Of a DNA stretch of 64,000 bases, positions 1 to 22,999 are shown piece after piece. A program made the translations under genes and the position numbers. The stretch spans positions 1-64,000 of the forward strand of contig MU271185.1 of the NCBI GenBank assembly GCA_021432655.1, in the 5' to 3' direction. The stretch comes from Atractiella rhizophila (Eukaryota). Position 1 is the first letter of the stretch, and each line of letters starts with the position of its first letter. The notes below the pieces were generated by a model. It saw only the letters and a list, made by a program, of their open reading frames with translations, did no database searches and was not told the origin of the DNA.

Positions 1-153
1 AGTGAGAAAGGACAATAAAGCAATAATGGAGACGGTGCAGACCGGCGAAATGTATAAGGTTTGCTGAGCGGCGATTCGTGTGAGACAGGGGAAGGCGGCG
101 ATCAGCGAGAACGTGAGCAAAGCGGCGATGGGCAGGCGCGTGGTCCTATGGCA
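1..153 (-). mobile_element. Probable 5' (U3) end of a gypsy-type LTR whose remainder lies left of the window
   Basis: The mirror copy of 1-153 (~9472-9624) runs directly into 9625-9897, whose complement matches the 3' half of the solo LTR at 14063-14451 and is followed by a gag ORF. The boundary at 153 (TG on the minus strand) is a guess. Confidence 0.4.
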
Positions 154-203
154 TGGTAAAGTGGGTCACGTGACTTCAGATGGTGCATTTCGGTAATGCG
201 TAG

Positions 204-1555
204 GGGCAAGCCTGACACTTGCTTTGCAACTTGATGCTGCACAAGAAAAGCTTAACGACGTCCAAGACGAACATAAACGTGCAATTGACGAGCTTGATGA
301 ACTGCGTATTGAGATAGAGAACGCAAAGAAAAAAAGACGGACAGGCAGCATTACATCTACAATCGCTGATGCAGCTGATCATGTTGCCAAACGAGCTGGG
401 AAGGCAGTAATTTTTCGTTACTCTGTTTGGCCATCCAAACAAGCTCCTGAATTCCAACCCCGTACTATGTCAAGACCTCAATCTGGATTGGATGACGTCG
501 GAGGGAAGGCCAGCTCAGCAGATCAGAGCTTGTCGGAGAGCGAAAGAGAGATGGCTGAAGAAATGTCGAGAGAAGAGCGGAAGAAGCAGTTAGTTAAGAA
601 ACTTGCAAGGCCATACAAGCACAGTTCGTTTGTTACTTTTGTCATTCTAGAAATGGGGGAGTATGCAAGGGAGATTGAGAAGCCAACTATTCGAAAGAAT
701 GTGAGCAGTGGCCGATCCCAGAAGCCAGTTCTCACACAATAACAGGTTCTCAAGGGGATGAGAGAAGGCCGAAGCGATGCCATGAAGAAGATACGAGAAA
801 ACCTAACCGAAATTTATGACATTGACAATCCGGACAAGCTTAACCTGAAGAACCATCACGTTCGCAAAGAGATTCCCCAGCTTCAGGCACTTCTCAAGGA
901 CGACAGTTTTCTTTTCAATCCTAAATTGTACGATCCAAATGATAAAAAGCAGAAGGTGAAGGCCTACCTCATGCATCCGGGTCTTTTTAGAGTATGTTTT
1001 TAGTTTTTCTATAGCTTTTCTTGCATACTTAATTGCCTTATCAACTGGGTGTAGGCAGCCCGAGTGGTTTTTCACGGCCCAAACGTGATATATGATGCAA
1101 AGTCAAAGTATAAATCAAACACAGTTGGTCCTTTGACGAGCACACATGAAGGTAGCACACAGATCATCGCTTTTATTGCTGTGGTTGTAAGCATTATCTG
1201 TCTACCTCTCAATATGAGTTCAGGTTCATTTCCTTCTTAGTGCTGCTCTGCCTTAGGCCCCGACCCAGAGTTTGAAAGGGTTGGAAAGGTTCCTGACCCG
1301 TATGGGAAAACTGAACAGAGTCGAAAGAAAGGCTTCAATTATCGTGGATTCTATCTACGCACCGTTTGCAATCTTCGAGCAATGCAAGAAAAGCATGGAG
1401 AACGGTTCAAGCGCCTGTTAGGAGATTGGAACAAAGAGGTATTCCCATCAGAAAAGGAGGTACGAGAGGAAGACGAAGAATATCAAGATGATTTCCTGGA
1501 AGAGGGACTCGATGCGATCTCTCAGGAAGACGACAGAGGCTACGGTGAAGTATGA
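204..1555 (+). CDS. Spliced hypothetical protein, DUF6698-like, apparently lacking its 5' exon(s)
   Basis: Phase-0 GT-AG introns at 701-745, 992-1054 and 1187-1240 join four open exons to TGA at 1553-1555. The C-terminal part (GLFRAARVVFHGP...IAFIAVVCCSAL...FNYRGFYLR...LLGDWNKEVF, acidic tail) resembles basidiomycete DUF6698 proteins from memory. No ATG in frame at the 5' end. Confidence 0.6.
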
Positions 1556-1709
1556 AAAGGCTAGGAATTGTAATTACCTCGGAAACTCAATGTATATAGC
1601 CTAAGCATGTATACAAACGTTACCATTTACTTCAACATTCAATACAAGCACATATTCATGTGCATCCGAAACATCTGAAAACGTTATCGCATTAGCAATG
1701 TGGTATCAT

Positions 1710-4620
1710 ATAACTCAGCTGTATCCCAAACAACCACGGTTGTCGCCGACTCAGGCAGTATCCAGTGTCACGTGACTTTTTTCTCCTTTCTCGTGTGGAC
1801 TATCGTTAAGATCAAACCTGAGTTAGAGTTGCTTCAGCGGGTATTTGGCGTAGCAGCTGAAGCGTTGCACTAGATAGCTGCGACGTCTCTGTACCTAGCC
1901 TCATAGAAGGTTTTTTCAAGTCGCGAGCTTTCCGACAAGAATACTTCGGTTCGACATCCTCCTCTCATATAGCTTGAAGTTTTCCGTTAAGACAACGTCT
2001 TTGGTTGCGAAGCTCTCTCAACCATAGGAACCATAAAAGTGGTGCGGGTGCCTTTTGGACCAACATAGGTACTCGGTCTATCTGCGACGAGGTGACAACT
2101 TCTGTGACTCAACTTATGTTTCCTAGTATTAACCGTGTTTGGTTTTCGTGAAAGAGGCTCTTCACAAGTCGCAGCTAGAGGTTGAACAGCTCGGGATAAA
2201 CAGCTGTGTCAAATTACCGACATAAAGCTTTGTACCTGCGTAGACCATTAGGGTTCACGAGTAGCCAGCTTCTCTAGCCATGGGTGACACGTTCCTGAAG
2301 TTTACGGACACTGGGGAAAGTGAAGAAAATAGTCTATCAGCGTTTTTATTATGGGACTATCACAGCTCCTGCAGAAAAAGTGAGGTCTCTAGCTGTAAAC
2401 GTGAGTCTCGAGCCTTATGCACGACTAAATGTCAACGGACGTCTAAACTGCACTACCGACCCAGGCGGGTATCTCATACGAGGCTACGACAGTCGACATA
2501 CTGTCTTCATTCTTTCCCTAACCCAACGTCCCCGTAGCTGGTTTCCACGGTAAACCTTATACTGACTAGCATCGATAACAGTTAGGTTCAGTAACACCTT
2601 GTTAAAATACAATCTTTCTTATGTAGACGGAGTCAAGGACACGGAACCAGACCAGGTTCTTAACTGAAGCCTGTCCTTCCACGTTAAGTCGAAACCCCTC
2701 TAAGAGTTAGGGGAAGAGCTTCAAAGAGTTTTGGCATAGGTTCTTACTGGTATTTAGAGGTATTAGGTATCTCAGGTGTCAGGAAAGCAGGTGAAGGCTT
2801 CTAAGTCATCTTTTATTCAAGCGCTTACGTACGAACTTCACCTTACACAGCCAGTTTTGAGCAAGCCTAACCCCGCAATAGCTACCGCAACCGCTTGCTC
2901 CCGGACTTGACTTCCCATATCTTCAGCGACATCTGACGACGCAGGGTGACATGCGTCCCACCTCACCTCTAAGACTGCCACCCGGCTAATGCTTCCTCGT
3001 CCCCTACGAATCTTGCCTCGGTAGTGTTTTCGAACTAGTCCTACCAGTCGCTACTAGTAGTAACAGTCACAGTAGTCGGTTTTCCTCCGACGAGTGGCAC
3101 CCAAGTCAACACCCTATTGAACTTGAAGTATACCAGTCGCCGTCATAGACCGACTGGTAAGGCGTACCTTACGATTTGAACTGAACTAGTAGTTCACAGC
3201 GAAATGAACTGGAATACCAGTAAAGGTCGCAAAACGACTAGTAAATCAGACGGACCGACCGGTAACTAACAGTAGACGGGGCAAAACTTACTAGTAATAC
3301 AGCACGGACGACCGATTTACTATCCCTCACTAATCGGTAGAAACAAAAATTGCCCGACGAGACAACCAGTGGCTTTTATACATTATTTACAACTAAACGC
3401 GTAATCATAGTTACTATACTTTTTAAGTAGCCACTGGCAAAGAGAATGTAGAAGGGCTTAAAACTTTTGTTGTGAAACACTCGAGTTCTACGGGACTCGG
3501 ATTTGGTTGCATGACGGGTCGATGGCATCGGATTGAGAGAGTAGGTAGTAATTCGAATTTACGACCTCTCTTCCTTATACGCGTGGCCTTTGTGAGTCTG
3601 TAGTCCGCTGGATCCATCATGAAGAACTATACTTTGTCGAGCCAACCTCTCTTCTACCAGCCTCTCTTCTGCCACCTTTCAATGTACCTGTTTACCTGTT
3701 TAGACTCGGTCCCTTAACCCTAGTGACAGTGACCTTGAGCTTCATCACGGTTAGCCTGTCCTTCTAAGGGCGTAATATCCTGACATGCGACGGTCTTAGT
3801 ACTACAGCCACCAACCACGTAGCAACAACAATCTTTGGACTGATATAGATTATAGGCTGGTGTTTCTTAGTAGTCGTACAGGCTTTATGTACCTTCACTC
3901 CACCCCTCTCTCATTCCCGTTGTACGTGACTTTCGAACTGTAGTAACGACAGTGAGCGCTGTTGCGGGAGTCTTGGGTCAGCAGTTGATCATATGTATGA
4001 TACTTAGAGGTTAACAGTTACATGAGGTGCACCATCATCCTTGGCGAGAACTAGACGAGAAGAAGGAAGAGGAGGAGTACAGCTTCTGTTGTAACCTCAT
4101 TTTCACATAGAGTTTTAGAGCCGCAGAGATGGTAGTAGATGGCGTTCATGATCATCTTGAGTCTATTCAGTATTTGGTGGACTAATTGACGTATGTATGA
4201 CCCTATCGCACTTTCTTTTGTATTCACCGACAGCTGCAACCACCGCTCAGACTCAGCTGTCAAGTTAAAAGAAGTCGGTAGTAGTTGAAGTGTCTCTCGC
4301 GGCTAGTTTAGTTGGAGAGCTCAAAGCGTACGTGATTAGGTATGGACAAACACGAAGTGAACCGATATCGACGGATACAATCCTAAGCGATGGCTATGAA
4401 GTCAAATAAGTCGTGCGTAGGGCGCCATCCGTTACCGCTTTATTCACACAACCTCTACCGCTACAAATGTACTACTCATCGTACCTCTTCACACTACGAC
4501 CAAAAGACATCGGGTCTCTGTAACATTACACAAGGTATCGAAACGCAATGTCTCCCTACTCCGAATTAACATAACAAATAAGGAACTGCAATTCCTCGTC
4601 CTACAATACTTCATCAATAG
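1710..4620. other. Reversed-not-complemented block 1
   Basis: 3019-4236 is the letter-by-letter reverse of 10798-12014 (e.g. 4221 tattcaccgacagctg vs 10798 gtcgacagccacttat). 4237-4620 is repeated at 7533-7916. Confidence 0.93.
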
Positions 4621-4645
4621 NNNNNNNNNNNNNNNNNNNNNNNNN
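4621..4645. other. Assembly gap (25 N)
   Basis: Run of 25 n. Confidence 1.
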
Positions 4646-7507
4646 GTAGAGAACGTGTAATCGATGGAGTCGACGTTGACATGCTTCGATGAAGGAATTT
4701 TGTGGCCCCACTTGCGAATCACCTCCTGTACGTCCTTCTTTGAGAGTTCGTCCACTTGAACCGCCACAGGTACACTGTCATTAGGGGTGTGCACGTCATG
4801 TAAGGCGAAGGCACTTTCCTGTTGAATGGGTCTTACGTCCACCTCTACGTGCTTGGCCCCAATGCAACTGCCCAATTTCAAACTCTCAGGAGACACGGTG
4901 CTCCCTTCAACGTGCGTACTAGGAGCTAGACGGAGGATATCTCTGTATTTCGAGTCAATGACGTAGTCGTCATTGAGGATACGCTTATTTGGGATTCTTT
5001 TTCGTGTGGAACGGCGAGGAGGTGGAGCTGTCTGAGTTGAGGTCGATGGATGGAAGGAAGGTGGCTCAGGTGGAGTGCTGGGACGTCTATGTGCGAAAGT
5101 TGGCTCCGTTGATTTGTCAGGGTAATGCTGATCATTTAGAGGAACATCACTTTCCTGAATTGCGGGTCTTACGTCCACCCTTTCGTGTGAAGCGCCCTCG
5201 CAACTGCCCGTTCCCAAATTATCTCTCTCCTCAAGATTACTCGCCTCAAAGGAGCTTGGAATGGATGGAGATGGAGCTATTGTTTCGATGGAGTTGGGAG
5301 CGGAAGGTGCAACTCGCACCCACGAATCGGGAAGTCCAGCATCAGAAGGTGCATCTTGAGGGAACTCATCTATATTCTTTTCTGACCAGAAAGAGTAGTC
5401 GTCCAGACGATCTGACCCAGTTCTCCCTTCAAAGTAGTTTTCAGCGAATATCACATGCCGTGCTCGAATTAGACGACATTTCATTGGGTCCCAGCAACGA
5501 TGCGATTTAAACATCACGTCAGGCCCAAGATAAATGCACCGGACAGCCTTATTTTGCCACTTCCTCCTTCGCTCTTCCGGTATGAGCGCCCATGCCGTAC
5601 AGCCAAATGTGCGTAGATAGCCAACTGAGGGTTGGATTCCTTCGAGAGTTGTGAGTGGTATCTTTCCCTGTAGCGAAGAATGAGGAGTTCGATTGTAGAC
5701 GTGGCCGGCAAAGTAGAGAGCTTCTGCCCAGAATGTTAGAGGAAGCCTTGCATGGTGGAGCATGGATTTTGCGAGGTTGCGGAGGGTGCGATGGATGCGC
5801 TCTGCAATCCCATTTTCTTGATGACAGTAAGGAGTTGTGGTTTTCCATTCTATATTGTTGACTTCGAACCAGGATCGTAACAGACTGCTCACGAATTCTC
5901 CTCCTCCATCGACTTTCCATCTCTGCACTCTTCGTTGGGTTTTTGCATGGAGGATCGATCTGAATCGCTCAAATGAGGGAAGAACAGTTGCCTTTGACTT
6001 GTCGGGAATGAATTCCTGGTGCACCACTCTCGATCCAACATCGACGTGTACAATTGAATACCAAGCACCACCTAACGAAGAGACTTGCACAGGACCAGTT
6101 AAATCGGACACTACAGACTCGCCCGGAAGAGTAGGCGGGAGCTCGACGCTTTGCTTTGAAGGAAACGGACCACGATGCATCTTTCCCATCACACATGGCT
6201 CACAAACTTCCTCAAAATCCTTTGCTTTCGCCTCTTTCACTTCCAAACCTCCAACCAGGGATTTCGAGATCAGATCTTTGATCTTCTCCATCCCGATATG
6301 CGCGAGTCTGTTGTGCCACACCTTCAGGTCGACAGCCTTTGAGGCAGTATCGATGTGAGTACTCGCCTTCGCCTTCCGTGCATCTCCCTTCAGCAGAAAC
6401 AGTCCCCCTTTGTCCTCCGCCATTCCTACCAGCCCTCCCTTCCGATTAAAAATCTTGCATGCTCCATCTTCGAAAACCAGTTCGAAACGGTCGCGAGGTG
6501 GAAGAGAGAGACTGACGAGTTTGGAGACGCTTATGAGGGGGCTGGTGAGCGAAGGCAGGTGAAGAACGTTTTGAAGTACGATGTTTGAGAGAGGTTGTCC
6601 ATTTTTGTTGTGGGTAGTGTATTCCGCAGAGCCTTTAGTCGTAATAGATATGCTTCTACCATCTGCCACCTCGATAGATCCATTGTGTGGCTGACGATTG
6701 AAGATGTAGTCGAGGGGAAAGACATGAGAGGTGCAGCCCGAGTCGATGCAGGCGGCGGTTGCCAGTTTGTCAAGAGATAGATTCGCCTTGCTAACTGACA
6801 CCTCTTCAACCAGTCGTACTTGATCTCGGATGGCAAGTGAACGTGTTGACTGGGCACTCGATGCAAAATCGGAGCTGAAATTGGAGACATTGAGGACAAG
6901 GTTCGCTTGGTCAGGAATGGAGGAGGTATCGATGGATGGTGACGCTACTTCTTTCCTGTTGTCTTTTCGCTTTGGATTGATCGTTCTGTCCTTGAATCGA
7001 TATCCTGAGGGTGCAAGGACTCGATTTGCTTCTAGCTCCCAGCAGCGATCAGGGGCATGGGAGCGTAGGTTGCAATGAGGACACGAAGGGAAGCGATTCA
7101 ATCCACTCTTTCTCCCCTTTTCTCCGACACTCCCACTGTTTCCACTCCCTCTCTGAGGTGCTATCGAACGCGAAACGAGGGCCTGTTCCTGTGCCTTCTG
7201 CACTTCACTGAGACCCTCTTCCAGCATAATCGTATTGATGGTGTTAGAGATCCATTCTGGGGTGAAGTCGATGAGAGTGGCTTGTGAGGATTTCGTTGCC
7301 TGCAGTGCCGAAAAATAGGGCTTCATCTTGTCGCGAAGTGAGTCTGGAACTGTCGCTTGGAGGTGTGCAGAGAAAACAATCGATTTCCAAGTCCCAGTAG
7401 TGAGCTTGTCTTCACCAACGTATTTGATGAAGTCTGTGAGATTCTTTTCGAGGACCGCCATGTGTTCTGTCCAGTGTTGAGGAGTTGTCCCACTGAAATG
7501 AGTGCGC
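4646..7507 (-). mobile_element. Ty1/copia retrotransposon internal fragment (gag zinc knuckle, protease, GAG-pre-integrase, integrase); RT/RNase H and LTRs absent
   Basis: Open frame with CPHCNLRSHAPDRC knuckle, CIDSGCTSH protease, WHNRLAH...CEPC, SDLTGP / VDGGGEF / ENGIAER integrase and YLRTFGC. Integrase directly after protease is the copia order. Both ends are cut by N runs. Confidence 0.95.
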
Positions 7508-7532
7508 NNNNNNNNNNNNNNNNNNNNNNNNN
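7508..7532. other. Assembly gap (25 N)
   Basis: Run of 25 n. Confidence 1.
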
Positions 7533-10500
7533 CAACCACCGCTCAGACTCAGCTGTCAAGTTAAAAGAAGTCGGTAGTAGTTGAAGTGTCTCTCGCGGCT
7601 AGTTTAGTTGGAGAGCTCAAAGCGTACGTGATTAGGTATGGACAAACACGAAGTGAACCGATATCGACGGATACAATCCTAAGCGATGGCTATGAAGTCA
7701 AATAAGTCGTGCGTAGGGCGCCATCCGTTACCGCTTTATTCACACAACCTCTACCGCTACAAATGTACTACTCATCGTACCTCTTCACACTACGACCAAA
7801 AGACATCGGGTCTCTGTAACATTACACAAGGTATCGAAACGCAATGTCTCCCTACTCCGAATTAACATAACAAATAAGGAACTGCAATTCCTCGTCCTAC
7901 AATACTTCATCAATAGTACTATGGTGTAACGATTACGCTATTGCAAAAGTCTACAAAGCCTACGTGTACTTATACACGAACATAACTTACAACTTCATTT
8001 ACCATTGCAAACATATGTACGAATCCGATATATGTAACTCAAAGGCTCCATTAATGTTAAGGATCGGAAAAGTATGAAGTGGCATCGGAGACAGCAGAAG
8101 GACTCTCTCGCGTAGCTCAGGGAGAAGGTCCTTTAGTAGAACTATAAGAAGCAGAAGGAGAGCATGGAGGAAAAGACTACCCTTATGGAGAAACAAGGTT
8201 AGAGGATTGTCCGCGAACTTGGCAAGAGGTACGAAAAGAACGTAACGAGCTTCTAACGTTTGCCACGCATCTATCTTAGGTGCTATTAACTTCGGAAAGA
8301 AAGCTGAGACAAGTCAAAAGGGTATGCCCAGTCCTTGGAAAGGTTGGGAAAGTTTGAGACCCAACCCCGGGTTCCGTCTCGCCGTGATTCTTCCTTTACT
8401 TGGACTTGAGTATAACTCTCCATCTCTCTATTACGAATGTTGCTGTCGTTATTTTCGCTACTCGACACACGATCGAAGTACACACGAACAGTTTCCTGGT
8501 TGACACAAACTAAATATGAAACTGAAACGTAGTATATAGTGCAAACCCGGCACTTTTTGGTGAGCCCGACGGATGTGGGTCAACTATTCCGTTAATTCAT
8601 TCGTTCTTTTCGATATCTTTTGATTTTTGTATGAGATTTTTCTGGGCCTACGTACTCCATCCGGAAGTGGAAGACGAAAAATAGTAAACCTAGCATGTTA
8701 AATCCTAACTTTTCTTTTGACAGCAGGAACTCTTCACGGACTTCGACCCCTTAGAGAAACGCTTGCACTACCAAGAAGTCCAATTCGAACAGGCCTAACA
8801 GTTACAGTATTTAAAGCCAATCCAAAAGAGCATAGAAGAAGTACCGTAGCGAAGCCGGAAGAGAGTAGGGGAACTCTTGGACAATAACACACTCTTGACC
8901 GAAGACCCTAGCCGGTGACGAGTGTAAGAAAGCTTATCAACCGAAGAGTTAGAGGGAACGTATGAGGGGGTAAAGATCTTACTGTTTTCATTGTTTGCTT
9001 GACACGAACATACCGGAGCGTTCAAAGAATTGATTGACGAAGAAGGCGAGAAGAGAGCTGTAAAGAAGTCGGTAGAGAGAAAGCGAGAGGCTGTTCGAGA
9101 CTAGACGACTCGACCGGAAGGGAGGCTGCAGTAGGTTAGGTCTAACTCCAGAACTGTATCATGCCCCAACCTTAAGTCCTCGAACAAACCTACCGGTTTG
9201 TCTCATTGCTTTTTAATGACGGAAGGGTCGAGCAAACCGTTGTACTAGTCGACGTAGTCGCTAACATCTACATTACGACGGACAGGCAGAAAAAAAGAAA
9301 CGCAAGGGATAGAGTTATGCGTCAAGTAGTTCGAGCAGTTAACGTGCAAATACAAGCAGAACCTGCAGCAATTCGAAAAGAACACGTCGTAGTTCAACGT
9401 TTCGTTCACAGTCCGAACGGGGATGCGTAATGGCTTTACGTGGTAGACTTCAGTGCACTGGGTGAAATGGTACGGTATCCTGGTGCGCGGACGGGTAGCG
9501 GCGAAACGAGTGCAAGAGCGACTAGCGGCGGAAGGGGACAGAGTGTGCTTAGCGGCGAGTCGTTTGGAATATGTAAAGCGGCCAGACGTGGCAGAGGTAA
9601 TAACGAAATAACAGGAAAGAGTGAACATGACGAGTCATACAGAATAAAGGCTCAAAAGGAAAATAACGAAAGGACTAGATCGATAGAATGTACAAAGTTC
9701 TTTGAATACTATGTCAAATACCGTCACGAAAATGTATACATATATATGTAGCTCTACATCACCACCACTGGAGTCTCATAAGAGAATCCAAATGGAGGTG
9801 ATGTCCAATCAGAAGAGTACGGTATAATAAGGGAATCCAAATGGAGGTGATGTCTGCGTAGCGGATAGCCGCTGGCGTGTATCACAATCGGGATTATCTT
9901 CTTATGAGAGAGGAATTTTAAAACTTTGGTTTGCATTTTTTACAGCCTCTAAACCCCTTTATACCTTTGCGCGCTTGGCGGCTGCTCGCTTCTTGCGTAG
10001 GTTGTGAATCTTTCCTACAAGGTTTGAGATGTGGAGTGTTGACTTTTCGTTAAGTTTTTTGAGCTTGTTCTGGAGTATAGTTCGAAGTTGGTTGTTTTAC
10101 GTGTTTGGAGGGTCTTACGCTTGCTTTAACGCGTTGACTCCAGGCTGCAGGTTTTGTGTTTGCTAGCTTAAAACGTTAATAACCTGAGGTCTGACGGGGG
10201 AGGATCTCTGTCACCTTGGTGGAGAGGAAAGAATAGCGCTTGTCTGGGTTATGGAGTTTGAATAAGAGGAGGCAGATATAGGGTCTGACGGGTTCATCGT
10301 GGCATACGTCCATAGTTCGAGCGAGGTGGAAGTTAGAAGTTTCCTCGAGGATTGTGTCGAGGCTGTAAAAATGCGCTTTAAATGCAGATGTGGAGATGGC
10401 AAGGTCCGGTTAAGGGCTGACTTTTTAGCTTTTTAGGATAAATGGGAAAGAATGTACTTTCTTCCTCTACGCCTTTTTAAGCGGCGACCCTAAAACGCGG

Positions 10501-10797
10501 CTGAACAGCTTTTACTCCTTGTTTAACGCACCCTTGTTAAAAACAGCCTCAAGTTTCGCGCAAAGACGTTCTGTCTGGTATTCGAGTAACGTGTCTGTTT
10601 TTATAGAAGGGAGGTCGTTTTCCCCTTGGATCTTTGGATGTAGTAGTTCAAGCTTCTTAACCGTTTAGTTCGACTGAAACTACTACTTCGGGAATGGAAA
10701 AAGAAGTTTGCTCCTGAGTTAGGATGGGATGTAGAGTTTCATTGGGTTCCCCTCAAGGGTTTTAGCGACCTTCCTGACCTTTCTTTTTAGAGCCGCT
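7533..10797. other. Reversed-not-complemented block 2
   Basis: 7917-9624 is the letter-by-letter reverse of 1-1709 (the window starts agtgagaaaggacaataaagc; 9604-9624 reads cgaaataacaggaaagagtga). 7533-7916 duplicates 4237-4620 (384 bp). Confidence 0.95.
9941..10797. mobile_element. Ty3/gypsy gag ORF legible only as the base-wise complement read left to right
   Basis: Complement translates MSEIWGNMETREPPTSEERIQHLERMF...IKLAPPSIFKGAPNTAPTFLREIYVY...QFPTEKSK, then after one extra base in the run at 10430-10434, ILFTLSYMKEGDAEKF...WEQFLSEFKARF...SLQQKGNLETYIIKFEELANQADFDDEALTFFFKRGLNP. This is a retrotransposon gag pattern. Confidence 0.88.
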
Positions 10798-12703
10798 GTC
10801 GACAGCCACTTATGTTTTCTTTCACGCTATCCCAGTATGTATGCAGTTAATCAGGTGGTTTATGACTTATCTGAGTTCTACTAGTACTTGCGGTAGATGA
10901 TGGTAGAGACGCCGAGATTTTGAGATACACTTTTACTCCAATGTTGTCTTCGACATGAGGAGGAGAAGGAAGAAGAGCAGATCAAGAGCGGTTCCTACTA
11001 CCACGTGGAGTACATTGACAATTGGAGATTCATAGTATGTATACTAGTTGACGACTGGGTTCTGAGGGCGTTGTGGCGAGTGACAGTAATGATGTCAGGC
11101 TTTCAGTGCATGTTGCCCTTACTCTCTCCCCACCTCACTTCCATGTATTTCGGACATGCTGATGATTCTTTGTGGTCGGATATTAGATATAGTCAGGTTT
11201 CTAACAACAACGATGCACCAACCACCGACATCATGATTCTGGCAGCGTACAGTCCTATAATGCGGGAATCTTCCTGTCCGATTGGCACTACTTCGAGTTC
11301 CAGTGACAGTGATCCCAATTCCCTGGCTCAGATTTGTCCATTTGTCCATGTAACTTCCACCGTCTTCTCTCCGACCATCTTCTCTCCAACCGAGCTGTTT
11401 CATATCAAGAAGTACTACCTAGGTCGCCTGATGTCTGAGTGTTTCCGGTGCGCATATTCCTTCTCTCCAGCATTTAAGCTTAATGACGGATGAGAGAGTT
11501 AGGCTACGGTAGCTGGGCAGTACGTTGGTTTAGGCTCAGGGCATCTTGAGCTCACAAAGTGTTGTTTTCAAAATTCGGGAAGATGTAAGAGAAACGGTCA
11601 CCGATGAATTTTTCATATCATTGATACTAATGCGCAAATCAACATTTATTACATATTTTCGGTGACCAACAGAGCAGCCCGTTAAAAACAAAGATGGCTA
11701 ATCACTCCCTATCATTTAGCCAGCAGGCACGACATAATGATCATTCAAAACGGGGCAGATGACAATCAATGGCCAGCCAGGCAGACTAAATGATCAGCAA
11801 AACGCTGGAAATGACCATAAGGTCAAGTAAAGCGACACTTGATGATCAAGTCAAGTTTAGCATTCCATGCGGAATGGTCAGCCAGATACTGCCGCTGACC
11901 ATATGAAGTTCAAGTTATCCCACAACTGAACCCACGGTGAGCAGCCCCCTTTTGGCTGATGACACTGACAATGATGATCATCGCTGACCATCCTGATCAA
12001 GCTTTTGTGATGGCCTAATCAAAGGATGGATGCAGGATCCGCGCAAAGGAGTCTGTGATTCCAACATCCGCGGATGGGAAGATCGCGGATTTCAGTGTCA
12101 AGGTAGCTATGGTCTACGGTCACGAAACTGCCAGCATAGTCGTTGCTGACACGTCGCCACCTCTCCACTCTCATGGATCTCATCTCTCATCCACTTGCTT
12201 AAGAATTTTGTTGTTGTTGTTGTTGTGATCATATTTCAGAGCTTTCAGACTATAGTCAACATAGCTCTACATTTGGGGATATCACATGTGAGAAAATGAA
12301 GATGTTAACAGTCCAACAAAGTAATCTTGGAGGTTGAATCAGAACCGAGAATATTGCGACGAGAAAGTGTAAAGGATATGAAAAAAAGCCCCCGGTAATC
12401 CCCGTTAAAATGTATGTTGGCGTGGAACGAAAGAAGCGGATGGGGGGTTACTTAAATCGCGATGGCTATTTGGTTGGGTTGTACGAGATGGGGATTGACG
12501 ATGTATTTGGTTCCTCCTTTGCTATAACCTCATGGTATATGTGTCATGGTAGATGGTTGTGTTCCTAGGAGCAATACCTTAGATGGGTCAGTGATGAGAT
12601 TGGACGTAACTCGTTTTTAGTCTTCCCACTCCTCCCTGAACTCTTCTTCCTCCCCTCTACTTTCCGCCATTTGCTTTCGCTTCTCCTTTCTTCTGTCCAA
12701 GAC

Positions 12704-15700
12704 TCATTGTGCCCTTTTGATCCATAGGTTGAATTTCCCATTCTTCCGGATGAATTCCCACACTGCTTGCGTTGCCTCCGGTTCGCTTAAAAGGTCCTTC
12801 AGGGATCGGAATCGAATGTCTTTCTTCCTGAGCCTGGCCCTGAGCTTCTTCCTTTCGTCTTCGTGTTCCTCGCATTCGAAAAATAGGTGGGTGACCGTGT
12901 CGTTCATTCCACAGAAGTCGCAGTATGGCTCGTCCATGACCCCGATGCGGTGGAGCTATTGGTTGTTGGAGATGTGTCCGCTGCGGAGTTGTACGAAGAT
13001 GGATGCTTGAGCTCGTGGCATCTCCTTAAGCATTTTGAAGGTCTGGTCCGAGGAGAGGTGACGAGATAGCGAGTGGTGGTGTTTGCCGGCAGAGAGTGTC
13101 GGGAGTTCGCTGGGTAGGAACCGACTGGTCGTTATTATGGCCTTCAGTGTGGATGGGCTTTTCGCAATGACGATGTGGCCTGTTGCTGATTCGGGATCCG
13201 TCGCGCTGTTGGCCGCCATGTCCGCTAGCTCGTTGCCTTTGACATTGTTGTGGCCTGGGATCCAATGGAGAGAGATGGAGCTGGTGGGGAAGAGCCTTCG
13301 GAATCTGTTTGCCAGCTTGTTGATGTTGAGGATCAAACCAACTCCAGGTTTGCATTTCGGTTTTCTTCGATAAACTTCTGACTGCGGCCTGAGAATCTGT
13401 GAAAATGCGTATAGACGAGACGGTTCCTCTTGAGTTATTGAGCGCAATCCCCAGTGTCAAGGCTCGATCTATCCCCATTAGTTCCGCTTCGAAGATGGTG
13501 TTATGGTCTTGGTTGCTGATCCTGTATCCCACTTTGTTCTCCGGTTCCGTCATCGCTAGCCCGCATGCCACTCCATCCTCTGTCCTTGAGCCGTCCGTGA
13601 AGATCCAAATTTCATCCTCTTCTTGCTTTAGCTTCTTGAAATCTTGCATCGCGTCTTCCTTTGAGCCCGCTATGAAGATGTCGAAAGATGGTGAGTGGCC
13701 AGGGTGGGTGGTGAAAGAAGGGATGATTTCGAGGTCCTTGGGAAAGTTGAGTTTGTCGGAGAGGAGGAGTGAATTGAGAGGAGAGAGGTGTTTCTTGGGT
13801 TGAGCAGAGTTGAGTATATCTTTTGCGATCCTGCCTGCTGGGTTGGAGTCCGGGAGGGAGAGCAGTCTGATCATTGCTCGAGTAATCGTTTTATCGAGGC
13901 GAGCCACCACTGGCGGAAGGTTGGAGTCATAGGAGAGAGCCGTTGTAGGGGTGGTGCGAAAGGCTCTGAGCATGAGTCTTTGAGCGTATCGTAGAACGAT
14001 TTCCAGCCGTGCTGCGCCGCCACTCTTCTTTCCAAGATGGTGCCAAATGATTGCGTTGTTATTGTCAGGTTTGCATCTTACGCAAATCGGCGCCCGTTCG
14101 CCGGATTGCGTCTCCCGTCGCCTATTTGCACGCCCGTTCGCCTGTTCGCCCATTTGCACCTACATCACCACTTAGCCCAATTGTGCCTATCCTCCTCTTA
14201 TTAACTCCGCGTAATCCCACTGTCACTTCCCTTTTAGTTCTCTTACATGTTTCATCTGCTCTCCTCTACGCTTTGTGGCAGTGTTATTCCGCTTGTATAT
14301 ATAGATCAGTGAGTAGTGGAGGTGACCTTAGAGTATTCTCTTAGGTTTATCTCCACTACAGGTTAGTCTTCATGTCATATCATGCTCTTAGGTTTATCTC
14401 CACTACAGACGCATCGCCTATCGGCGACCGCACATAGTGTCAGCCCTAACAGTTATCTTATCATTGCACAGATTGCAGCCTCATCCAGGCGCCGATAGTG
14501 TAGAAGTGGGATGCCTTTCGTCGTATTGGAGAGGGTCGGCAGAAGGGAGAGCGATGACTTCGCCTTCTTCTCAATCACTTTTAGGCGGGAATTGAAGCTT
14601 AACCTGGAATCAAGGAGCATTCCTAGGTGTTTCATTTCCAGCGACTGCATAATGGTTGTAGATCCAACACGAATAGTGAGGTTGCCGAATCTGGACTTCA
14701 TCTTTTTATGTTTACCATAAAGGACGAAATCCGTCTTGGCCTCCTCAAAAATAGCGCCATGTTTCTCACGCCAAGCCATTGCCTTGTCGAGCATCACCTC
14801 AAGGTTGGAAATGGCCCGTTCTGGGTTCGTCTCACGGGCATTCATGTGGACGTCGTCTACGAACCCGCATTTGAGAGAGTCCCCTTCCAGAGCCTGTATG
14901 TCAAGGAGGTCAGCATTGTAGAACAAGTATAAGATGGGAGATAAAGGAGATCCTTGAGCCAGTCCAATTCCTAGGACGAAAGGCTTTGACGTGTATCCGT
15001 CGAAGTTGTAAGTCGTTTGTCTGTCTCGCAGCCATGCCTCAATGATGTCGATCTCGCTTTCTGGGACTGATCTCTTCCTGAGGTCGTCGATTAGACGAGC
15101 GTGAACTACTGTGGGGAAGGCCCCCTTTACGTCCAGTGAAACCGAGGCTGTTACCTCTCCCTTCCTCCAGCCCTCTCTTATGAACTCTGTGACTGTTAGT
15201 AGGGCGTCATTGATGGATCTACCTGGCCTAGCTCCGAAGTGATGGGAGGGGAGCGCTCCATTGCTCTCTGCATGGAAGGTGAGTCTGGCTGAAATAACGC
15301 CGTCGAAAACCTTCGCAACGCAGTCTAGGAGGGCAATCGGCCTGTAGGCCGAAGGAGGGAGTAGTCGGCACGTTTAGGTTTCCGTAGGATGACCGTTGTG
15401 AAGTGCTTCCAGGACCATGGGTAGTATCCAACAATGTAGCAGGCGGAGAAGATGTTGAAGAGATGGTGGCATATCTCCAACCTAACCTCCTTTATCATCT
15501 TGTTGGAGATGCCCGATAGTCCTGGCGCAGAACTCGTTTTGATTCTATCTATAGCTTTGTCAATCTCTTCAATCTTTAGGGGGCGGGCTGGAGCTGGAGA
15601 AGGGGGGTGGGGATGTGGGATGTCAGAAAGGTCACATCGGCGCGCTGAGGGATTGAAGGAGGAATGGAATAGGGAGGCTTTTTCCCCTGGGGAGGATACG

Positions 15701-17059
15701 GTGTCTTCAGGGCTGTCAGGGTTGGTGAGAGGTGGGATGTCATGACACCGTTCCTCCCTTTTACCATATTTGTGAGCTGTCCAAATGGAGTTCTTGTCCA
15801 GGTCGGCGAGGAAATCTTCGAAGTGCTGGGACTTCGCTTGTCTGATGTCTGCATGGAATTGGTTAGCTGCTCCCCACCAGGTCAAGCGAGCTTCCTCCGT
15901 TGATTCCTCGCTGCCTTTCTTTTTCGCTTTGAGGAACCTGTTACGCAGCTTGTTGACCTTTTTCCGCTTTTCTGACAAGCTCCTCCGTCCACCATCGCTT
16001 CGTAGGTTGACTCTTGGAAACTCTGGGGATCAGTTTCATGGCGTCAACCAGCGCTGCGGTGAGGTGTTCGACCGCTGCATCAATGTTTTCTTTCGTCGCT
16101 AGTTCGTCCACGTCCCCTGGGATACCTGCCAACAGATCAGATTTTTGAAGGTGTTCTCTTACCAACTCCCAGTTAGCGGTTTGGAGGTTGTAGTGGCGAC
16201 ATGGATTGAATGCTGGGGGAAGGAGCGAAAGCTTGGTCACTAGCTTGTAGTGGTCCGAGTTGTGACTGTTTCCCCCTCGGTCAGTGACGCAGTATGTTAT
16301 GAACTCGTTGGCGATTTCGTTAGTGAAGATAAGATCAATGGCTGTTTCGTGTCCCAGGGCACTTATGAATGTTGGGACACCTCGTTGAGAGCATAGGGTG
16401 AGACCTATTTCCTCCATGTTTTCTAGGAGATAGTCTGCGTTGCCATCCGTGCGTGTGTACCCTTCTGGGTTCCACTCGGTGTGGTGCAAGTTAAAATCCC
16501 CCCCTACATATATCAGGTCCTCTTCTTTTAATGTTCCTCTTTCTCTGGCATCATTTAAAAGTGACATAACATTGTTAATGGTCTGTCTGCCCCCTGCCGC
16601 ATTGTATACGTTTACGACGAAGAAGCTTTCCCCCCCTTTAAGTGAAATCACCACCGCTGAAACATCAGGATATTTACTGGGAACTTCCAAAAATGAATCT
16701 CCCGAAAATGTATTAAGATTGATAAGAATAACAGAGCGGGAGACTTCTGATCTAGAGTCTGAAGTTTTCGCTTTTTTTGAAGCAATTGTTTTATAACCGG
16801 GATAACGAATAAGTGTCCCGCTGTCAGGAAGAACTGTGGGAGGCTCTTGAATTAAAATGATGTCTGCTAGACGGTCTTCAGAATTTAGAAATGAGTGCGT
16901 GATAGTTCCTCTTTTATGGTGATTTTGCTGAATGATCGTTAGAATTCTTTTAGAGGCGGATGAGTTTGGAACCATTGCTGGAGTGTGTGGTGGGACCAAA
17001 CCGCTCTCTGAACTGGTGTCGTTGACTGCATCAGGCCATGTGAAGATTTCTTCTATCAT
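12704..17059 (-). pseudogene. LINE ORF2 (APE endonuclease - RT - RNase H - C-terminal zinc finger), frameshifted and split by a solo LTR
   Basis: IIQQN, DIILIQEP, GGDFNLHH, NSDH (APE); SAPGLSGI, GFVDD (RT); IFTDGS, FEAEL, IFTDSQAA, WIPGH...GNELAD (RNase H); CDFCGMNDTVTHLFFEC. Spread over several frames. Confidence 0.92.
14063..14451 (+). mobile_element. Solo LTR (389 bp), gypsy family, inserted in LINE ORF2
   Basis: TGTCAGG...CCTAACA termini, 5-bp TSD GTTAT (14058-14062 and 14452-14456), TATA-like run near 14296. The 3' half matches the complement of ~9690-9897, which precedes the gag. Confidence 0.9.
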
Positions 17060-18905
17060 TCTACAACCTCATTGTTGCTCAATACTGGCAACTCAGTTGT
17101 TTCACTTCCCGTCTCAAGCTTGGGCGTCTGTTCTCTTCCATCATTTCCCTCCTCTTTATCCTCTTGATGAATGGGTGCCCCTTCCGGTTCGTCATCCCAT
17201 TCATCCCTTTCAAAGTATTCTCCTAGTTCTCGTTCGACTAATCTCGCTTTAGCTCTGTCAGCTCTCTTCCTAAGGCAATTGTCTCCTCCATAGGCCCCAT
17301 GTGCACCATGTCCTTTCTCGCCACAGTAAGCGCAGCGTAACGCTACCCTCACATGTGAGCAGAGTGTACCTATCGGGGTCTTATCTCCACATGGAGATGG
17401 GTCTAATCCTTCTTGCATGAAGCAGGTTAGTTGCTTTGTGCAAGATCTTGTATCGTGCTCTTCTGCGCATGCTCCGCAAACAGGTCTGTCTTTTCTATGA
17501 CAGCTTCTACCAAAATGTCCTAGTTGGAAGCAATTAAAGCATTGTGGCAAGGCTCGAATCGATTTTTCGGCGTTGAGGCGTCGACCATTGAAGAACACCC
17601 CTCTTTCAATGGCTTCATCCGCGACTTTTCCGTTTTTGAAGAAAATCAACAAGGATGAGAAGCTCTTGAGAGCGTTGCTTTCTACATTCTTGTCTTTGAA
17701 AATTTTATTCGAGACCCATTCTAGCTTTAGAACATCCATTCTGTCCAGTTGTTGCGGTCTAAGAGTAGTCTCTTGACCTGACTCTTGTCCCTTATATTCC
17801 AATCGGTCTGGACTCTGTGAATCACCACAACGTCCGTTGGAACATTTCGGGTGAAGCCCTTGAGTTCACCACAAGCATCTACCCACTCAGTGAAGGTTTG
17901 CGAAGCCCTGTCGCAATCGATGGTATCGTTGAACCATAGAGCCAACCCCCCTCCAGGTAGTTTGTCCACTGCAGAAGCAGTGACGATACTATTCTCCTGT
18001 TCTTCCGGGGTGTTGTCCCTAATCGGTTCGCTGAAGACCAATCTCTTGACTAGGGCCTCGTTAACTTGAGCAAGCAAATCCGCTTCGGATTTATCAACTT
18101 GGTGGGCTTCGGAGTCATTGGGAGGGAAAAGTGTCAGCTTTCTAGAGCGATTTCGCCTCTGGCGAGCTTTCTTAGAAGCTGCCCTGGAACGGATGGGAGC
18201 GTTCGTCGGTGCTAGGACTGAGGGGAGAAGGCTAAGCGGAGGGAAATCATTTGCATCTGGCACCCAGGTGGGTCGGATGGTGTTCGTATCATGAACACAG
18301 ACTCCCTCTGAGAGTTTGCTTTCAATCCCTTCTAGTCTGTCTAGGATCAAATCGATTGACTTGTTCGCAATGGCTTGATTACGAGTAATGCAACACATTT
18401 TGCTGAGAGGGTCTAGCTTCAGCATATGAATGGCAGTCTTAAAAAGAGTGCTAATGTTGTCTACTACGGTTTGATCCGTTTTGAATTCTCCTCTGGAATT
18501 TTTGAGCTTGTTTTTCCCGCACATATTGCGAAATTCTAAAAAGGCAAAGTCCAGAAGCTGGACTGGGTCATTCTGGGTCTCTTCATCAATGCCCAGAATG
18601 TCTACAACTCTTGGAAAGGAAGGGGTGCCATGGATGGAAAGAGGTGGAATAGACTCTCGGTTCGAAGCACTCATGTCAAGGAGGTGCGTACTGGTGACCC
18701 TTCCTCCTCTGTCGCTTTCGTCGATAGCCCTCTGGCTATTTCTCATTATTCCTCCTTTGTTGGCACTCATGGAGTGCTGATTTTGGAGAGCGGTGGGGAG
18801 GCGAGTAGAAGTTGGAGCAAATTCTACTCGCAGTTCCCCTCCTTTCCCAGGTCCAGAGTTGGCCTTTCCGCCCTCTTGTGAGGGGTTGGGGCCTTTCTGG
18901 GGCAT
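17056..18905 (-). pseudogene. LINE ORF1 (gag-like, zinc knuckles), one frameshift near 17770
   Basis: CFNCFQLGHFGRSC, CGACAEEHDTRSC, CAYCGEKGH. Colinear with the unbroken frame at 36465-38222. Confidence 0.9.
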
Positions 18906-20695
18906 GGTAGTCGGTGGGTTGTGTTGGAGAGTTGGTTTTGTTGGAATTGTTCGATGGGGTTTCGTCGTTTCTCCCTCACTTGCTTAAGAAAATGAACATA
19001 GTTTGACCAAAAGTCACATGCCTCAAGAAGATAGAGGTATCGTGCTTGAGCCCAGAGAGAGACTCTTAGAAAATGTCATGACTGCAAGGCAGGAAGGTAT
19101 GACCTATGCCCTTCCATCAAACGTTCGTTGTTACCCCGCCTTTCGTGAGTTTTCCTCCTTCTGTGGCACATGTTCGGGTGCTAACTGCATTGGATGGCAG
19201 GACAAAACTCTCCAACACTTCTACAAGCTCGGTGACAACCGTACGACCCTCCTCCTTGCCTACTCCTCTCCGATCGCTGACCTATCATGTCTGTGCTGCA
19301 AGCGCCTACAAATTTCAGAATGTGCATTCTATTCCTTATGCTCCATGGAATATCTTGTATAACGAAACCGATTGGACAGAAAGTTTCCCTAGAAGAAGAA
19401 GAAATGGTGGAACCACTCTCTGTGGCCTCCAAAATGTGGCACATATCAATGGATGAAAGCTGGGTTGAACGTTGTCATTTGCCTGTCAGTCTCCCTCCAT
19501 CTACTCCTCATCTACCTGTAGAATAAAATAATAATGACGGTGGTTCAAGAGCAGGCTCGCTTGCACGAACAAGTATGAGGACGGGAGACTTCATGGCTCC
19601 TAAACGTGCGTCCAACCCTAATGCCTCTTATGCATGACTTGTCTCAGGTTTCTGTTTCTTTTTGCGCGTGATGGTTTGCGTTTGTGGTTTAGCGGAGGGA
19701 GTGCAGAGCATAGTGTACTCGAGACGGTCGTGGGGATCATGAAGGAGGAGTTCAAGACTGCAGACAGGGAATTGGATGATATCGACATGACCATAGACTG
19801 CATGGGGCTGAGGTTCGTTTCTCCTTCCTGCACTTTCTGATATTGGTGTACTAAAATACTGATGCAATTAATGAAGACAGGCGTGCGTCGAGACCGCCCC
19901 CTTTCTCGTCAAGAACGGCGGAACGTACATCCCAGTCGGGTAACCAGTCCAAACTCCCATCACCATCCTCATGAAGGAGAGGCTCCCTTTACCTCACGCA
20001 TTTATGAAGCTTCTTGGTTAGTTATTGAGTTGCACGATACTTAAGGTCCGGGAGAGTTGTGCAAGTGATTGGTTTGGTTGCTGGAGTTCTTGTCGACTTG
20101 AAGTCGCAGCACTATAAGTTCAAAGATACAATTTGTCCCTCGAAGACGATGTAAGCTCGTCCCCAAGGGTTGAAGGAATAGTCCCATTGTTATACCACAT
20201 CTTCGGTCTTCAATGGCACCGCTTTCTGTTCTGTTAAGTAGGACATCGTTGAATGCATGAGTCGTCGCCAGCTGTAAGAACGACTCAAGTGACACTCAAA
20301 GGGTGATCGGCTGCACTACAGTGTAGCACATTTGGACGGAACTTGATGCCTTAGGCGCTTTTGCTGGGAATCAGCAGAATCATTTGCATGGCAGAAGACA
20401 TCCGTAATACACACAGAGAGCGTCCTCCTCACAAACCCAATCTCGTCATGCCCTGAAGCTTCCGAAATAGTCATCAACACCAGTTCTACTCCTTCTCATC
20501 CAACGTCATCATTGCCCGTATCCCTCATTTCCTGATTCCCCAAGAACCAGCAAATAAACACTGGGAAACCGACTCACCCCTGCAACAGGAAATAGTTATG
20601 ACCTATACCACACTGTGTTCTAATAGTGCGCATGGAAAGACTTGGTGTGGATGGGGTTCCAAGATTGCTCATACGAATCGAGCATGAGGTGTCAT

Positions 20696-21105: not shown

Positions 21106-22999
21106 TCACCACTCCCCACCCTCCCGAACCCAGGTATCTTCATTCTCCTCGCTCACCCCGAACTTTCTCAACGTGCTCCTTCCCTTGCATATCTCGTCCT
21201 CAAGCCACCCTCCAAAGAATAGCTGAACCCTCAACCCGCGTCCTCTTGTCGTCTTCACCTTTTCAGCTCCATCCTCCATATCCCCCTCCTCCTTCACCCC
21301 CCTGTCCCCAAAGAACCAGCAGATGAAGTCTGAGAATACAAACCCTGTGAATTCCCAGTCCACCACACAGTACCGAACATCTATGATGGTTATCGCTTTT
21401 GCATTTGTGAGGGTGTGGAAGAACTGGGGGGCAATGAGGTTCGAAGTTTCCTCACCACCATTGAGGAAGAGTTGGGTGAGATGTTTGAGGTGTGATAGGT
21501 CGAGCGGAGTGGAGAGGATGGAGGTCTTTCCATTGGGTGAGTAGGGAGCGAGTGTGATATCGAGATGTTCGAGGAGAGGCGGCAGACAGGAGCCTGAGAC
21601 GGAGGGAGGCAGGGAGCACAGATTGGAGAGATGTAAATACGTGAGGGTGAGTGGGAGAGAGAGCGATGGGAGAGGCAGGTATGTGTGAAGCGTTAGGATT
21701 TTGAGGTCAGATGACAATTGAAGGCCTGGTGATGTCGACGAGGCAGAGTCCTCCACGTCAAAAGCACGGAAGAATCTGATCCTGCCACCGATCCTCTGCA
21801 TAAAATTCTCAACCTCATCCTTCTTCCACTTTCTCCAACCTTGCCCTCCAAATGTTACCTCATCCAACCTCATCAAGCTTTCAATCGCATGCAACACAAT
21901 CTTCGCCTCCTCTTCACTCCACAATGCATCCATCCACACTGCCTCAACATTCGGCGAGCCAGCGATGACGTCTTTCACCATCTCAATGCTGACATCATCC
22001 TCAAAGCTTCTTTCAATAGCTATGTATGTCCACAAATGCCCGGCATTAGGATAAGCTGTCAAACGAGCATGCAACTCCTTCACAGAAACATGTTCACTCA
22101 AATATGGGACTAAAACAGCCTTCCAGAGCTGACAGACGGCAGAAACTCGCTCGAAGTCAACAAGATATCCAGTACCTTCTATGAGCCCTTCAGATTCATC
22201 CAATGAAAGAAACTCGAAGATGAGTGAGAGGATCTCAGTAGGGAGGTGTGTGATACTGCATAAACTAATACCTGTAGGTCGAGTTGTGGAGAGGGAGAGT
22301 TGGATGGTTGTCCCCAGACCGGTGGATGGGACGGTTGATTCCTCCCATTCGCTGAGAGGAATGAAACGCCGTTGCTCCTTGCAGTATAGGGCAACGGGTT
22401 CAAAGAGGACCTGAGAGCGATTATCTGGAAGATGAAAAGTGCATGTGAAGGGCTTCCGAGACCGAAAAGTGCATGTGAAGGGATTCCGAGACAGGCGCTC
22501 CAATTCCACGGATGCACGACGTTTGGTATCCCCAAAGGCTACTGAAATACTTTGCTTCTCCAACGTGATGCAAAGAATCAGTGCACCGTCAGGTTTGACT
22601 CCATTTTCGATGGCTGCCAGAGAGAAGTAGGATGATTTCGACGGCCCATAATACTTGCTCCAGAATTCAAGAGGCAAGACAAATGTGATCCGGAGAATGT
22701 GAATTGATGGAGGTAGGCGAAAAAGGAAAGAGGGAAGAATGGAGAGGTGGATTGGAGCGCCATGGAACAATGTTACTGGGGTAATGAGATGCGCCAGTGC
22801 GATTGACTCTGTTCCCTGATCATCCTCCCGTGAAATCAATGTTTCCTTCTCAATCCTTCGCAGAGAAGATACGCTGGACTGAAGCCCACGAATTCATGTT
22901 AAACGAGGCAAGGGCAGGGGAAAGATCATATCATGCCTGCAGCACATCAGCGCGTTGTCCAGTCATCATCTCGACGTTCTCGGGGCAATGATCAGACAT
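21106..22999 (-). CDS. F-box / LRR(RNI-like) protein, copy 1
   Basis: ITHLPTEILSLIFEFL...SAVCQLWK F-box motif followed by LxxLxL repeats. Exon 1 22937-22999, GC-AG intron 22879-22936, exon 2 21106-22878, in frame. Confidence 0.85.

Follow-up and report, generated by a model that had tools for sequence, protein, structure and literature searches.

The window analysed here comprises positions 1 to 64,000 (forward strand) of contig MU271185.1 in the Atractiella rhizophila assembly GCA_021432655.1. Its first 12 kb hold the end of one contig, a fragment of a Ty1/copia-type retroelement enclosed by two gaps of 25 N, and the start of a second contig with a spliced gene. Two blocks, R1 and R2, lie between these correctly written parts and the gaps, and their letters run backwards on the same strand (Table 1).

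Table 1. Features at the left end of the window. Positions are those of the window; LLR is the k-mer score described in the text.
Feature	Position	Strand	Remarks
Native contig end A	1–1709	+	Written correctly; k-mer LLR +23.8 per kb; X1 and X2 contig pieces on it stop at 1709
Block R1, 2,911 bp	1710–4620		Reversed without complement; extends the left contig to the right, into gap 1; LLR −21.6 per kb, 4 of 4 1-kb windows negative
Sub-block X, distal part of extension 1	1710–3018		LLR −14.5 per kb; matches nothing else in the window, whatever the orientation
Sub-block D, mirror copy of 10798–12014	3019–4236		99.5% reverse-only match; LLR −31.5 per kb
Sub-block E, 384-bp A-to-C bridge written backwards	4237–4620		Exact direct copy of 7533–7916; run-contig loose ends match the reversed form
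25-N gap 1	4621–4645		N run
Ty1/copia-type Gag-protease-integrase fragment contig	4646–7507	−	Correctly written; LLR +26.8 per kb; ORF and Pfam; run-contig pieces stop at 4646 and at 7507
25-N gap 2	7508–7532		N run
Block R2, 3,265 bp	7533–10797		Reversed without complement; extends the right contig to the left, into gap 2; LLR −17.4 per kb, 5 of 5 1-kb windows negative
Mirror copy of 1–1709 inside R2	7917–9624		99.2% reverse-only match; LLR −22.6 per kb
Sub-block Y, distal part of extension 2	9625–10797		LLR −11.5 per kb; LINE fragment 9716–9898 is the plain complement of 14272–14452
Native start of right contig C, spliced gene	10798–12014	+	Correctly written; LLR +29.7 per kb; X1 piece begins at 10798

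The copia fragment (2,862 bp) carries a minus-strand frame that is open into both N gaps. Its product matches the Pfam domains gag_pre-integrs (1.3e-12), Pol_BBD (6.8e-12) and SH3_retrovirus (2.9e-21), with rve (5e-07, 30.4 bits) slightly below the cut-off of 32.6. The domains of a Gag, protease and integrase polyprotein are thus present, as in Ty1/copia. Reverse transcriptase, RNase H and LTR were not found within 4646–7507, a piece truncated by N gaps at both ends. In a contig of one public run (X4, see below) 30 letters extend beyond 7507, and these match the window in no orientation. The contig bearing the fragment was probably misplaced by scaffolding, or is specific to one allele.

The first-pass annotation had reported two mirror repeats, reversed and not complemented, and had proposed a comparison of the window with its own reverse. 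A blastn comparison of the window with its plain reversal recovered both reverse-only matches, and the coordinates given were correct. Positions 1–1715 pair with 9624–7910 at 99.18% identity over 1,716 columns (12 mismatches, 2 gaps, E = 0), and 3019–4236 with 12014–10798 at 99.51% over 1,218 columns (5 mismatches, 1 gap, E = 0). The description of the copies as letter-for-letter was slightly too strong, since global alignment finds 13 differences in the first pair (1–1709) and 6 in the second (10798–12014). The longest exact mirror word has 459 bases; five shuffled versions of the window reach 16–19, and its native part, 12206–64000, reaches 22. The mirror matches in the record are far beyond chance.

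The junction letters place the true boundaries of the blocks at 1709/1710 and 10797/10798. At their other ends both blocks adjoin 25-N gaps, as had been noted from the letters. Two further repeats were found by blastn. One is an exact direct repeat of 384 bp (4237–4620 and 7533–7916, 100% identity), which touches both N gaps. The other is a complement-only match of 183 bp, in which 9716–9898 pairs with 14272–14452 at 87.5% identity.

Reverse-only symmetry on one strand is also the mark of H-DNA mirror repeats. Tracts that form H-DNA are short, homopurine/homopyrimidine in composition, and have their arms next to each other. Here the arms measure 1.2–1.7 kb and are separated by spacers of 6,207 and 6,561 bp, the purine fraction is 0.49–0.57, and the longest purine-only or pyrimidine-only run has 21 bases. 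A triplex reading was rejected on these grounds, and the earlier statement that this is not a homopurine H-DNA tract agrees with the purine fraction.

The direction in which each part is written was scored with a fourth-order Markov model trained on both strands of 12206–64000, by comparing the sequence as written with its reversal. Such a test discriminates reversal because the k-mer spectrum of the genome is symmetric under reverse complementation and asymmetric under reversal. Control chunks of 3 kb (n = 17) score +29.3 per kb on average (sd 7.1, range +19.5 to +42.5). The three native blocks as written give +23.8, +26.8 and +29.7 per kb, whereas R1 and R2 give −21.6 and −17.4, with all five of their sub-blocks negative. 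At the scale of 1-kb windows, nine out of nine inside R1 and R2 score as reversed, versus none of 92 outside.

The stretches that score as reversed are exactly the two, 1710–4620 and 7533–10797, that the first-pass annotation had proposed for re-mapping of reads. The present result refines that proposal in that the reversal extends beyond the two mirror repeats, to parts for which the window contains no mirror partner (1710–3018 and 9625–10797). The reversed state of these two parts is less strongly indicated, by their k-mer scores (−14.5 and −11.5 per kb) and by the single 183-bp complement-only match.

Reversing R1 and R2 in place restores ordinary sequence relationships. The separate repeats become a single collinear HSP between the left and right halves, with 99.25% identity over 3,317 columns. 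Un-reversed R1 continues A seamlessly, and un-reversed R2 joins position 10798 in the same way. The complement-only LINE match at 9716–9898 turns into an ordinary inverted copy.

Reading frames and their products were compared as well. The three longest stop-free frames of R1 lengthen from 90, 84 and 83 aa as written to 171, 163 and 141 aa after un-reversal, and those of R2 from 129, 106 and 104 aa to 192, 181 and 166 aa; part of the gain follows from the copy of C contained in R1 and the copy of A contained in R2. Weak Pfam matches, one of them to DUF6532, were obtained for two of three plus-strand ORFs of 1–1709, and none of three ORFs of its mirror copy has a match. A tblastn search with 40 native-part ORFs of at least 150 aa returned no hits at E ≤ 1e-3 in R1 or R2 in either form, as written or un-reversed, and so does not discriminate between the two.

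Evidence from outside the record comes from the assembled contigs, as opposed to the raw reads, of four public runs, X1 to X4. X1 and X2 stem from one sample, which may be the sample behind the record, and are not mutually independent. Record 10 of X2 covers 1201–1709 and continues for 205 further letters, and record 7 of X1 carries 132 letters ahead of 10798. The 30-letter consensuses of these loose ends match the bridge in the window only when reversed, with scores of 24 (X2) and 25 (X1) of 30, whereas the remaining three orientations score 11–13. A control loose end ahead of 12014 matches 30 of 30 letters as written, at 44705–44734. The alignment to the un-reversed bridge spans 28 of 30 letters of the X2 end, with mismatches near its start, and 27 of 30 letters of the X1 end, where one mismatch occurs. 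The run contigs thus differ from the un-reversed bridge, which points to an allele or copy that is slightly different.

The run contigs also bear on the origin of the backwards copies. At least 5 of the 17 substitutions that distinguish the native from the backwards copies recur as variants of the X1 contigs at the same position and with the same letter, and a 1-bp deletion at 1004 recurs there too; a rough estimate of the number of such agreements expected by chance is about 0.03. The mirror copy at 7917–9624 has four substitutions and one 1-bp deletion in common with X1 contigs. The backwards copies carry variants common to run X1 and therefore derive from real DNA. A contig of X4 skips 11108–11186 (GC..AG) and 11447–11501 (GT..AG) within 10885–11635, both on the plus strand. 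These splice-type skips identify the copy at 10798–12014 as the native one. Depth is zero in all four runs for the 13 of 13 bins lying wholly inside 2101–4620 and 7561–10500, and the native parts are covered; this depth is contig-based, so absent cover does not count as evidence. Taken together, the data show that R1 and R2 are written in reverse, that each is attached where it belongs, and that their sequence originates from real DNA, either of a second allele or of a near-identical copy.

The mirror repeats are very probably an assembly artefact, consisting of two gap-flank extensions written reversed and without complement, and not a product of biology. A software strand error during gap filling had already been suggested from the letters, and that suggestion is supported by the k-mer scores, by the collinearity gained on un-reversal and by the run contigs that cross 1709 and 10798. 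We infer that the fault arose in the gap-extension step of a gap filler.

The events can be reconstructed as follows. In the true DNA of at least one allele or copy, 1–1709, the 384-bp bridge and the sequence from 10798 onward would be contiguous. The scaffold would have set the copia-fragment contig (4646–7507) between the left and right contigs, thereby creating two gaps. Gap filling would then have added 2,911 bp to the right end of the left contig, made up of the bridge, a copy of 10798–12014 and 1,309 bp more, and 3,265 bp to the left end of the right contig, made up of 1,173 bp, a copy of 1–1709 and the bridge. The 1,173 bp (sub-block Y) probably represent sequence to the left of the window start. 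Both extensions would be read-through of the same true sequence, and each gap would have been left as 25 N because neither extension met the copia contig. Both would finally have entered the record as reversed strings, not complemented. Written in this way, the redundant copies would appear as mirror repeats, the copies of the bridge as a direct repeat at the gaps, and the inverted LINE as a complement-only match.

The bridge could be a solo LTR of the copia element, which would explain why the scaffold placed the element here. The data speak neither for it nor against it: the junction letters show no clear TG..CA termini accompanied by a target-site duplication, and the X4 letters beyond 7507 have no match in the window.

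Three other accounts of the reversed blocks have to be weighed. Mirror copies truly present in the DNA of the cell, made by an unidentified process that copies kilobases reversed and uncomplemented, are vanishingly improbable. Their sole support is that the record holds such copies at 99.2–99.5% identity, yet the blocks break the k-mer spectrum of the genome itself, and the reversal spans whole blocks that end at N gaps, partnerless parts included. Moreover, the letters that the run contigs carry beyond 1709 and ahead of 10798 are those of the un-reversed sequence. To our knowledge no polymerase chemistry yields a reversed, non-complemented copy.

The choice among software faults depends on where the reversal begins and ends. 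If minus-oriented contigs had been reversed and not complemented during scaffolding, the same letters could result, since a reversed string is the complement of a reverse complement, and a gap does bound both blocks. In that case the blocks should be corrected by complementing, which would yield inverted copies, instead of by reversal in place. However, no gap lies at 1709/1710 or 10797/10798, and in-place reversal makes both junctions agree with the other copy and with the loose ends of the run contigs, whereas complementing would bring unrelated sequence to them; a scaffolding fault of this kind is very unlikely. We regard as exceedingly unlikely an origin in the handling of the record after assembly, by format conversion, submission or a later pipeline. 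The sequence names no program, and a published gap-filler fault of such a kind was not found, both of which would suit that origin. A general handling error would, however, ignore the limits seen here: the fault is confined to blocks running from a contig end to the 25 N and spares the 2,862 bp between the gaps.

Extensions left beside gaps by a gap filler have a close parallel in PBJelly. In the accessible text of its description, 25 N defines a gap and flanks are extended into gaps (PMC3504050); many 'overfilled' gaps are attributed there to scaffolding errors (English et al. 2012, PMC3504050). The present locus resembles the overfilled or extended gaps, as far as that text describes them, in its residual 25 N, in the new sequence on contig ends and in the lack of overlap with the neighbouring contig. 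The account of scaffolding errors given there also fits a copia fragment set between contigs that are really 384 bp apart. Unlike the extensions described in that text (PMC3504050), those seen here are reversed without complementation. A literature search that included the accessible parts of PMC3504050 and PMC6733440 found no published account of any gap filler with a reverse-only fault. The 25-N gaps, the flank extension and the 'overfilled' gaps are in keeping with PBJelly-type behaviour, and the chances that PBJelly was the actual program are about even.

The artefact proposed here has a further parallel in bioinformatics benchmarks, where sequence that is reversed and not complemented serves as a deliberate null or decoy. 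Such decoys keep composition and length and carry no biology, and R1 and R2 behave in this manner in the ORF, Pfam and k-mer tests. The difference is that the reversal here would be accidental and lies inside a public genome record.

The significance of the finding is almost certainly one of data quality only, and not of new biology. About 6.2 kb are unreadable as written, and any genes in them are hidden from annotation. Positions 1–1709, the bridge and 10798–12014 are represented twice in the record. The same fault could affect other assemblies processed likewise, and a k-mer score of sequence as written against its reversal, trained on the record itself, offers a cheap, read-free detector for it.

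A blastn comparison of the window with its own plain reverse yields two kilobase-scale reverse-only matches (see the table). The mirror repeats described in the first-pass annotation are thereby confirmed, except that they are not letter-for-letter, since global alignment finds 13 differences in the first pair and 6 in the second. Exact mirror words reach 459 bases in the window, versus 16–19 in five shuffles and 22 within native sequence 12206–64000; therefore the matches cannot be chance. Two further repeats were detected by blastn: an exact 384-bp direct repeat (4237–4620 and 7533–7916) that adjoins both N gaps, and a complement-only match of 9716–9898 to 14272–14452 with 87.5% identity.

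The k-mer spectrum of real DNA is symmetric under reverse complement and asymmetric under plain reversal. A fourth-order Markov model was trained on both strands of 12206–64000, and each block was scored as written minus reversed, per kb. The two blocks adjoining the gaps, R1 and R2, score negative, as do all five of their sub-blocks, including 1710–3018 (−14.5) and 9625–10797 (−11.5), two stretches without a mirror partner anywhere in the window. Negative 1-kb windows number 9 of 9 inside R1 and R2 and 0 of 92 in the remainder of the window. The reversed state thus spans two whole blocks, from contig end to N gap, and extends beyond the mirror repeats alone. These blocks are exactly the stretches that the first-pass annotation had singled out for re-mapping of reads.

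Coordinates, scores and run-on lengths of the features discussed
Feature	Positions	Strand	Detail
Block	1-1709		+23.8 per kb
Block R1	1710-4620		-21.6 per kb
25-N gap 1	4621-4645		
Block between the gaps	4646-7507		+26.8 per kb
25-N gap 2	7508-7532		
Block R2	7533-10797		-17.4 per kb
Block	10798-12014		+29.7 per kb
Controls, 17 cross-validated 3-kb chunks			mean +29.3 per kb, sd 7.1, minimum +19.5
Reverse-only match 1	1-1715 with 9624-7910		99.18%, 1,716 columns, 12 mismatches, 2 gaps
Reverse-only match 2	3019-4236 with 12014-10798		99.51%, 1,218 columns, 5 mismatches, 1 gap
Run contig, X1 record 3	1201-1709		
Run contig, X2 record 10	1201-1709		205 letters beyond
Run contig, X2 record 11	4646-5155		
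Run contig, X1 record 6	7009-7507		214 letters beyond
Run contig, X2 record 15	7009-7507		312 letters beyond
Run contig, X1 record 7	10798-11350		132 letters ahead of 10798
RNase_H (LINE-like elements)	13026-14159	minus	
Exo_endo_phos_2 (LINE-like elements)	15941-17059	minus	
RVT_1 (LINE-like elements)	34033-35652	minus	
F-box-like ORFs of the array	21106-22839, 40165-41871, 46844-48562	minus	
F-box-like ORF copy	27718-29386	minus	apparently broken

R1 and R2 were each reversed in place by script, giving a left half (1–1709 plus un-reversed R1) and a right half (un-reversed R2 plus 10798–14000). The two halves align as a single collinear HSP of 3,317 columns with 99.25% identity, and the letters are seamless at the boundaries 1709/1710 and 10797/10798. 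Therefore the true order is 1–1709, a 384-bp bridge, and 10798 onward. This string occurs twice, once as the left contig with its extension into gap 1 (R1) and once as the extension into gap 2 (R2) with the right contig. One model explains every oddity of the region: each extension includes the end of the contig on the opposite side, producing the mirror repeats; the 384-bp direct repeat is the bridge, twice written backwards on the basis of the same data; un-reversal makes the complement-only LINE fragment an ordinary inverted copy; and the 99.2–99.5% identity reflects extensions taken from another allele or copy than the contigs. Past its copy of 10798–12014, the first extension diverges from the native contig precisely at 12014, where blastn places the border of a large tandem array; its source is therefore an allele or copy whose sequence differs beyond that point.

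Four public runs, all present as contigs, were found with native stretch 52001–62000 as query and compared over 1–12600. X1 and X2 represent one sample, which may be the source of the assembled record (share of sampled words 0.72 and 0.67, respectively). The contig pieces stop exactly at the block limits. Thirty-letter consensuses of the loose ends behind 1709 and before 10798 match the window only when reversed, one at each end of the bridge, with scores of 24 and 25 versus 11–13 in the three remaining orientations. As a control, the loose end before 12014 matches 30/30 as written at the paralogue 44705–44734. Because the loose-end matches are imperfect (28/30 and 27/30 letters covered, with mismatches), the run contigs come from a slightly different allele or copy. 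At least 5 of the 17 native-versus-backwards substitutions recur in X1 contigs at the same place and with the same letter, as does a 1-bp deletion at 1004, where rough arithmetic predicts about 0.03 chance coincidences. Real DNA is therefore the source of the backwards blocks, which are wrong only in written order. All 13 depth bins wholly inside R1 and R2 are empty in 4/4 runs, these being contigs, whose missing cover does not count as evidence.

An X4 contig skips 11108–11186 (GC..AG) and 11447–11501 (GT..AG) on the plus strand, as a spliced gene would look, so 10798–12014 is the native copy of its mirror pair. The spliced contig (record 22) carries 36 further letters before 10885, whose 30-letter consensus has no match in the window in four orientations (best score 14/30); they may represent an upstream exon lying beyond the window, or come from another copy. 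Separately, bin 1–420 has a summed word depth of about 21,800 (X1) and 39,300 (X2), versus roughly 240–860 in each of the three bins that follow, and loose ends are found at 217–219 in many contigs. Near 217, a repeat of high copy number apparently ends.

The correctly written sequence between the gaps is a minus-strand Ty1/copia-type Gag-protease-integrase fragment, open in reading frame into both gaps; no reverse transcriptase was found in it. Since the contigs flanking it are separated by 384 bp according to both the extension data and the run contigs, the fragment either was misplaced by the scaffolder or exists in one allele only. An X4 contig, like those of X1 and X2, has a loose end at 7507; the 30-letter consensus of this X4 end has no match in the window, so gap 2 probably conceals genuine copia sequence. 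Short skips bounded by GT..AG occur in X4 contigs as well, at 5346>5397 and 5826>5873, where depth is low (about 4).

As to the cause of the fault, the available part of the PBJelly paper (PMC3504050) defines a gap as 25 or more N, has unspannable gaps entered by read extension of the flanking contigs, and terms 'overfilled' those gaps whose extensions do not overlap, often from scaffolding errors. Gap filling of this type fits the anatomy here, a likeness that does not itself identify the program used. However, the reverse-only fault seen here is absent from that part of the account, and no description of such a gap-filler fault was found in the literature as available, including the accessible parts of PMC3504050 and PMC6733440. 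Among the papers listed by a literature search, 'reversed, not complemented' phrases occur only in those using such strings as controls. Alternatively, whole minus-oriented contigs might have been reversed at scaffold building, to be repaired by complementing. Such a history disagrees with the two junctions, which read without a break only when the blocks are reversed in place.

The window is eukaryotic DNA that appears fungal. Pfam identifies LINE-type endonuclease, reverse transcriptase and RNase H ORFs and F-box-like paralogues in it. A plus-strand ORF of 1–1709 has a weak DUF6532 match (E 0.0019, below the family cut-off), and none of the three ORFs in the mirror copy of 1–1709 matches a Pfam family. 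The tandem array (12014–49000, left edge at 12014) consists of diverged multi-kb direct repeats of 74–92% identity. Two minus-strand LINE-like elements, 12206–18976 and 34094–38345, are 77% identical over about 4.3 kb; the former splits a repeat unit whose halves, 12014–12205 and 18977–20694, are contiguous in the copy at 44735–46647. A 390-aa minus-strand ORF at 62253–63425 matches the phosphotransferase (APH) family (E 6e-06, 26.6 bits versus a cut-off of 23.2).

An H-DNA mirror repeat was rejected on composition and spacing: the purine fraction of these arms is 0.49–0.57, stretches of purines only or of pyrimidines only reach at most 21 bases, and the spacers between the arms measure 6,207 and 6,561 bp. 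Reversed decoy sequence is alike in that the backwards blocks lack family matches and have the wrong k-mer spectrum. The artefact reading favored in the first-pass annotation is supported by the k-mer scores, the in-place un-reversal and the loose ends of the run contigs. The mirror repeats are present in the record and are not real biology; that the cell itself contains mirror copies is improbable in the extreme.
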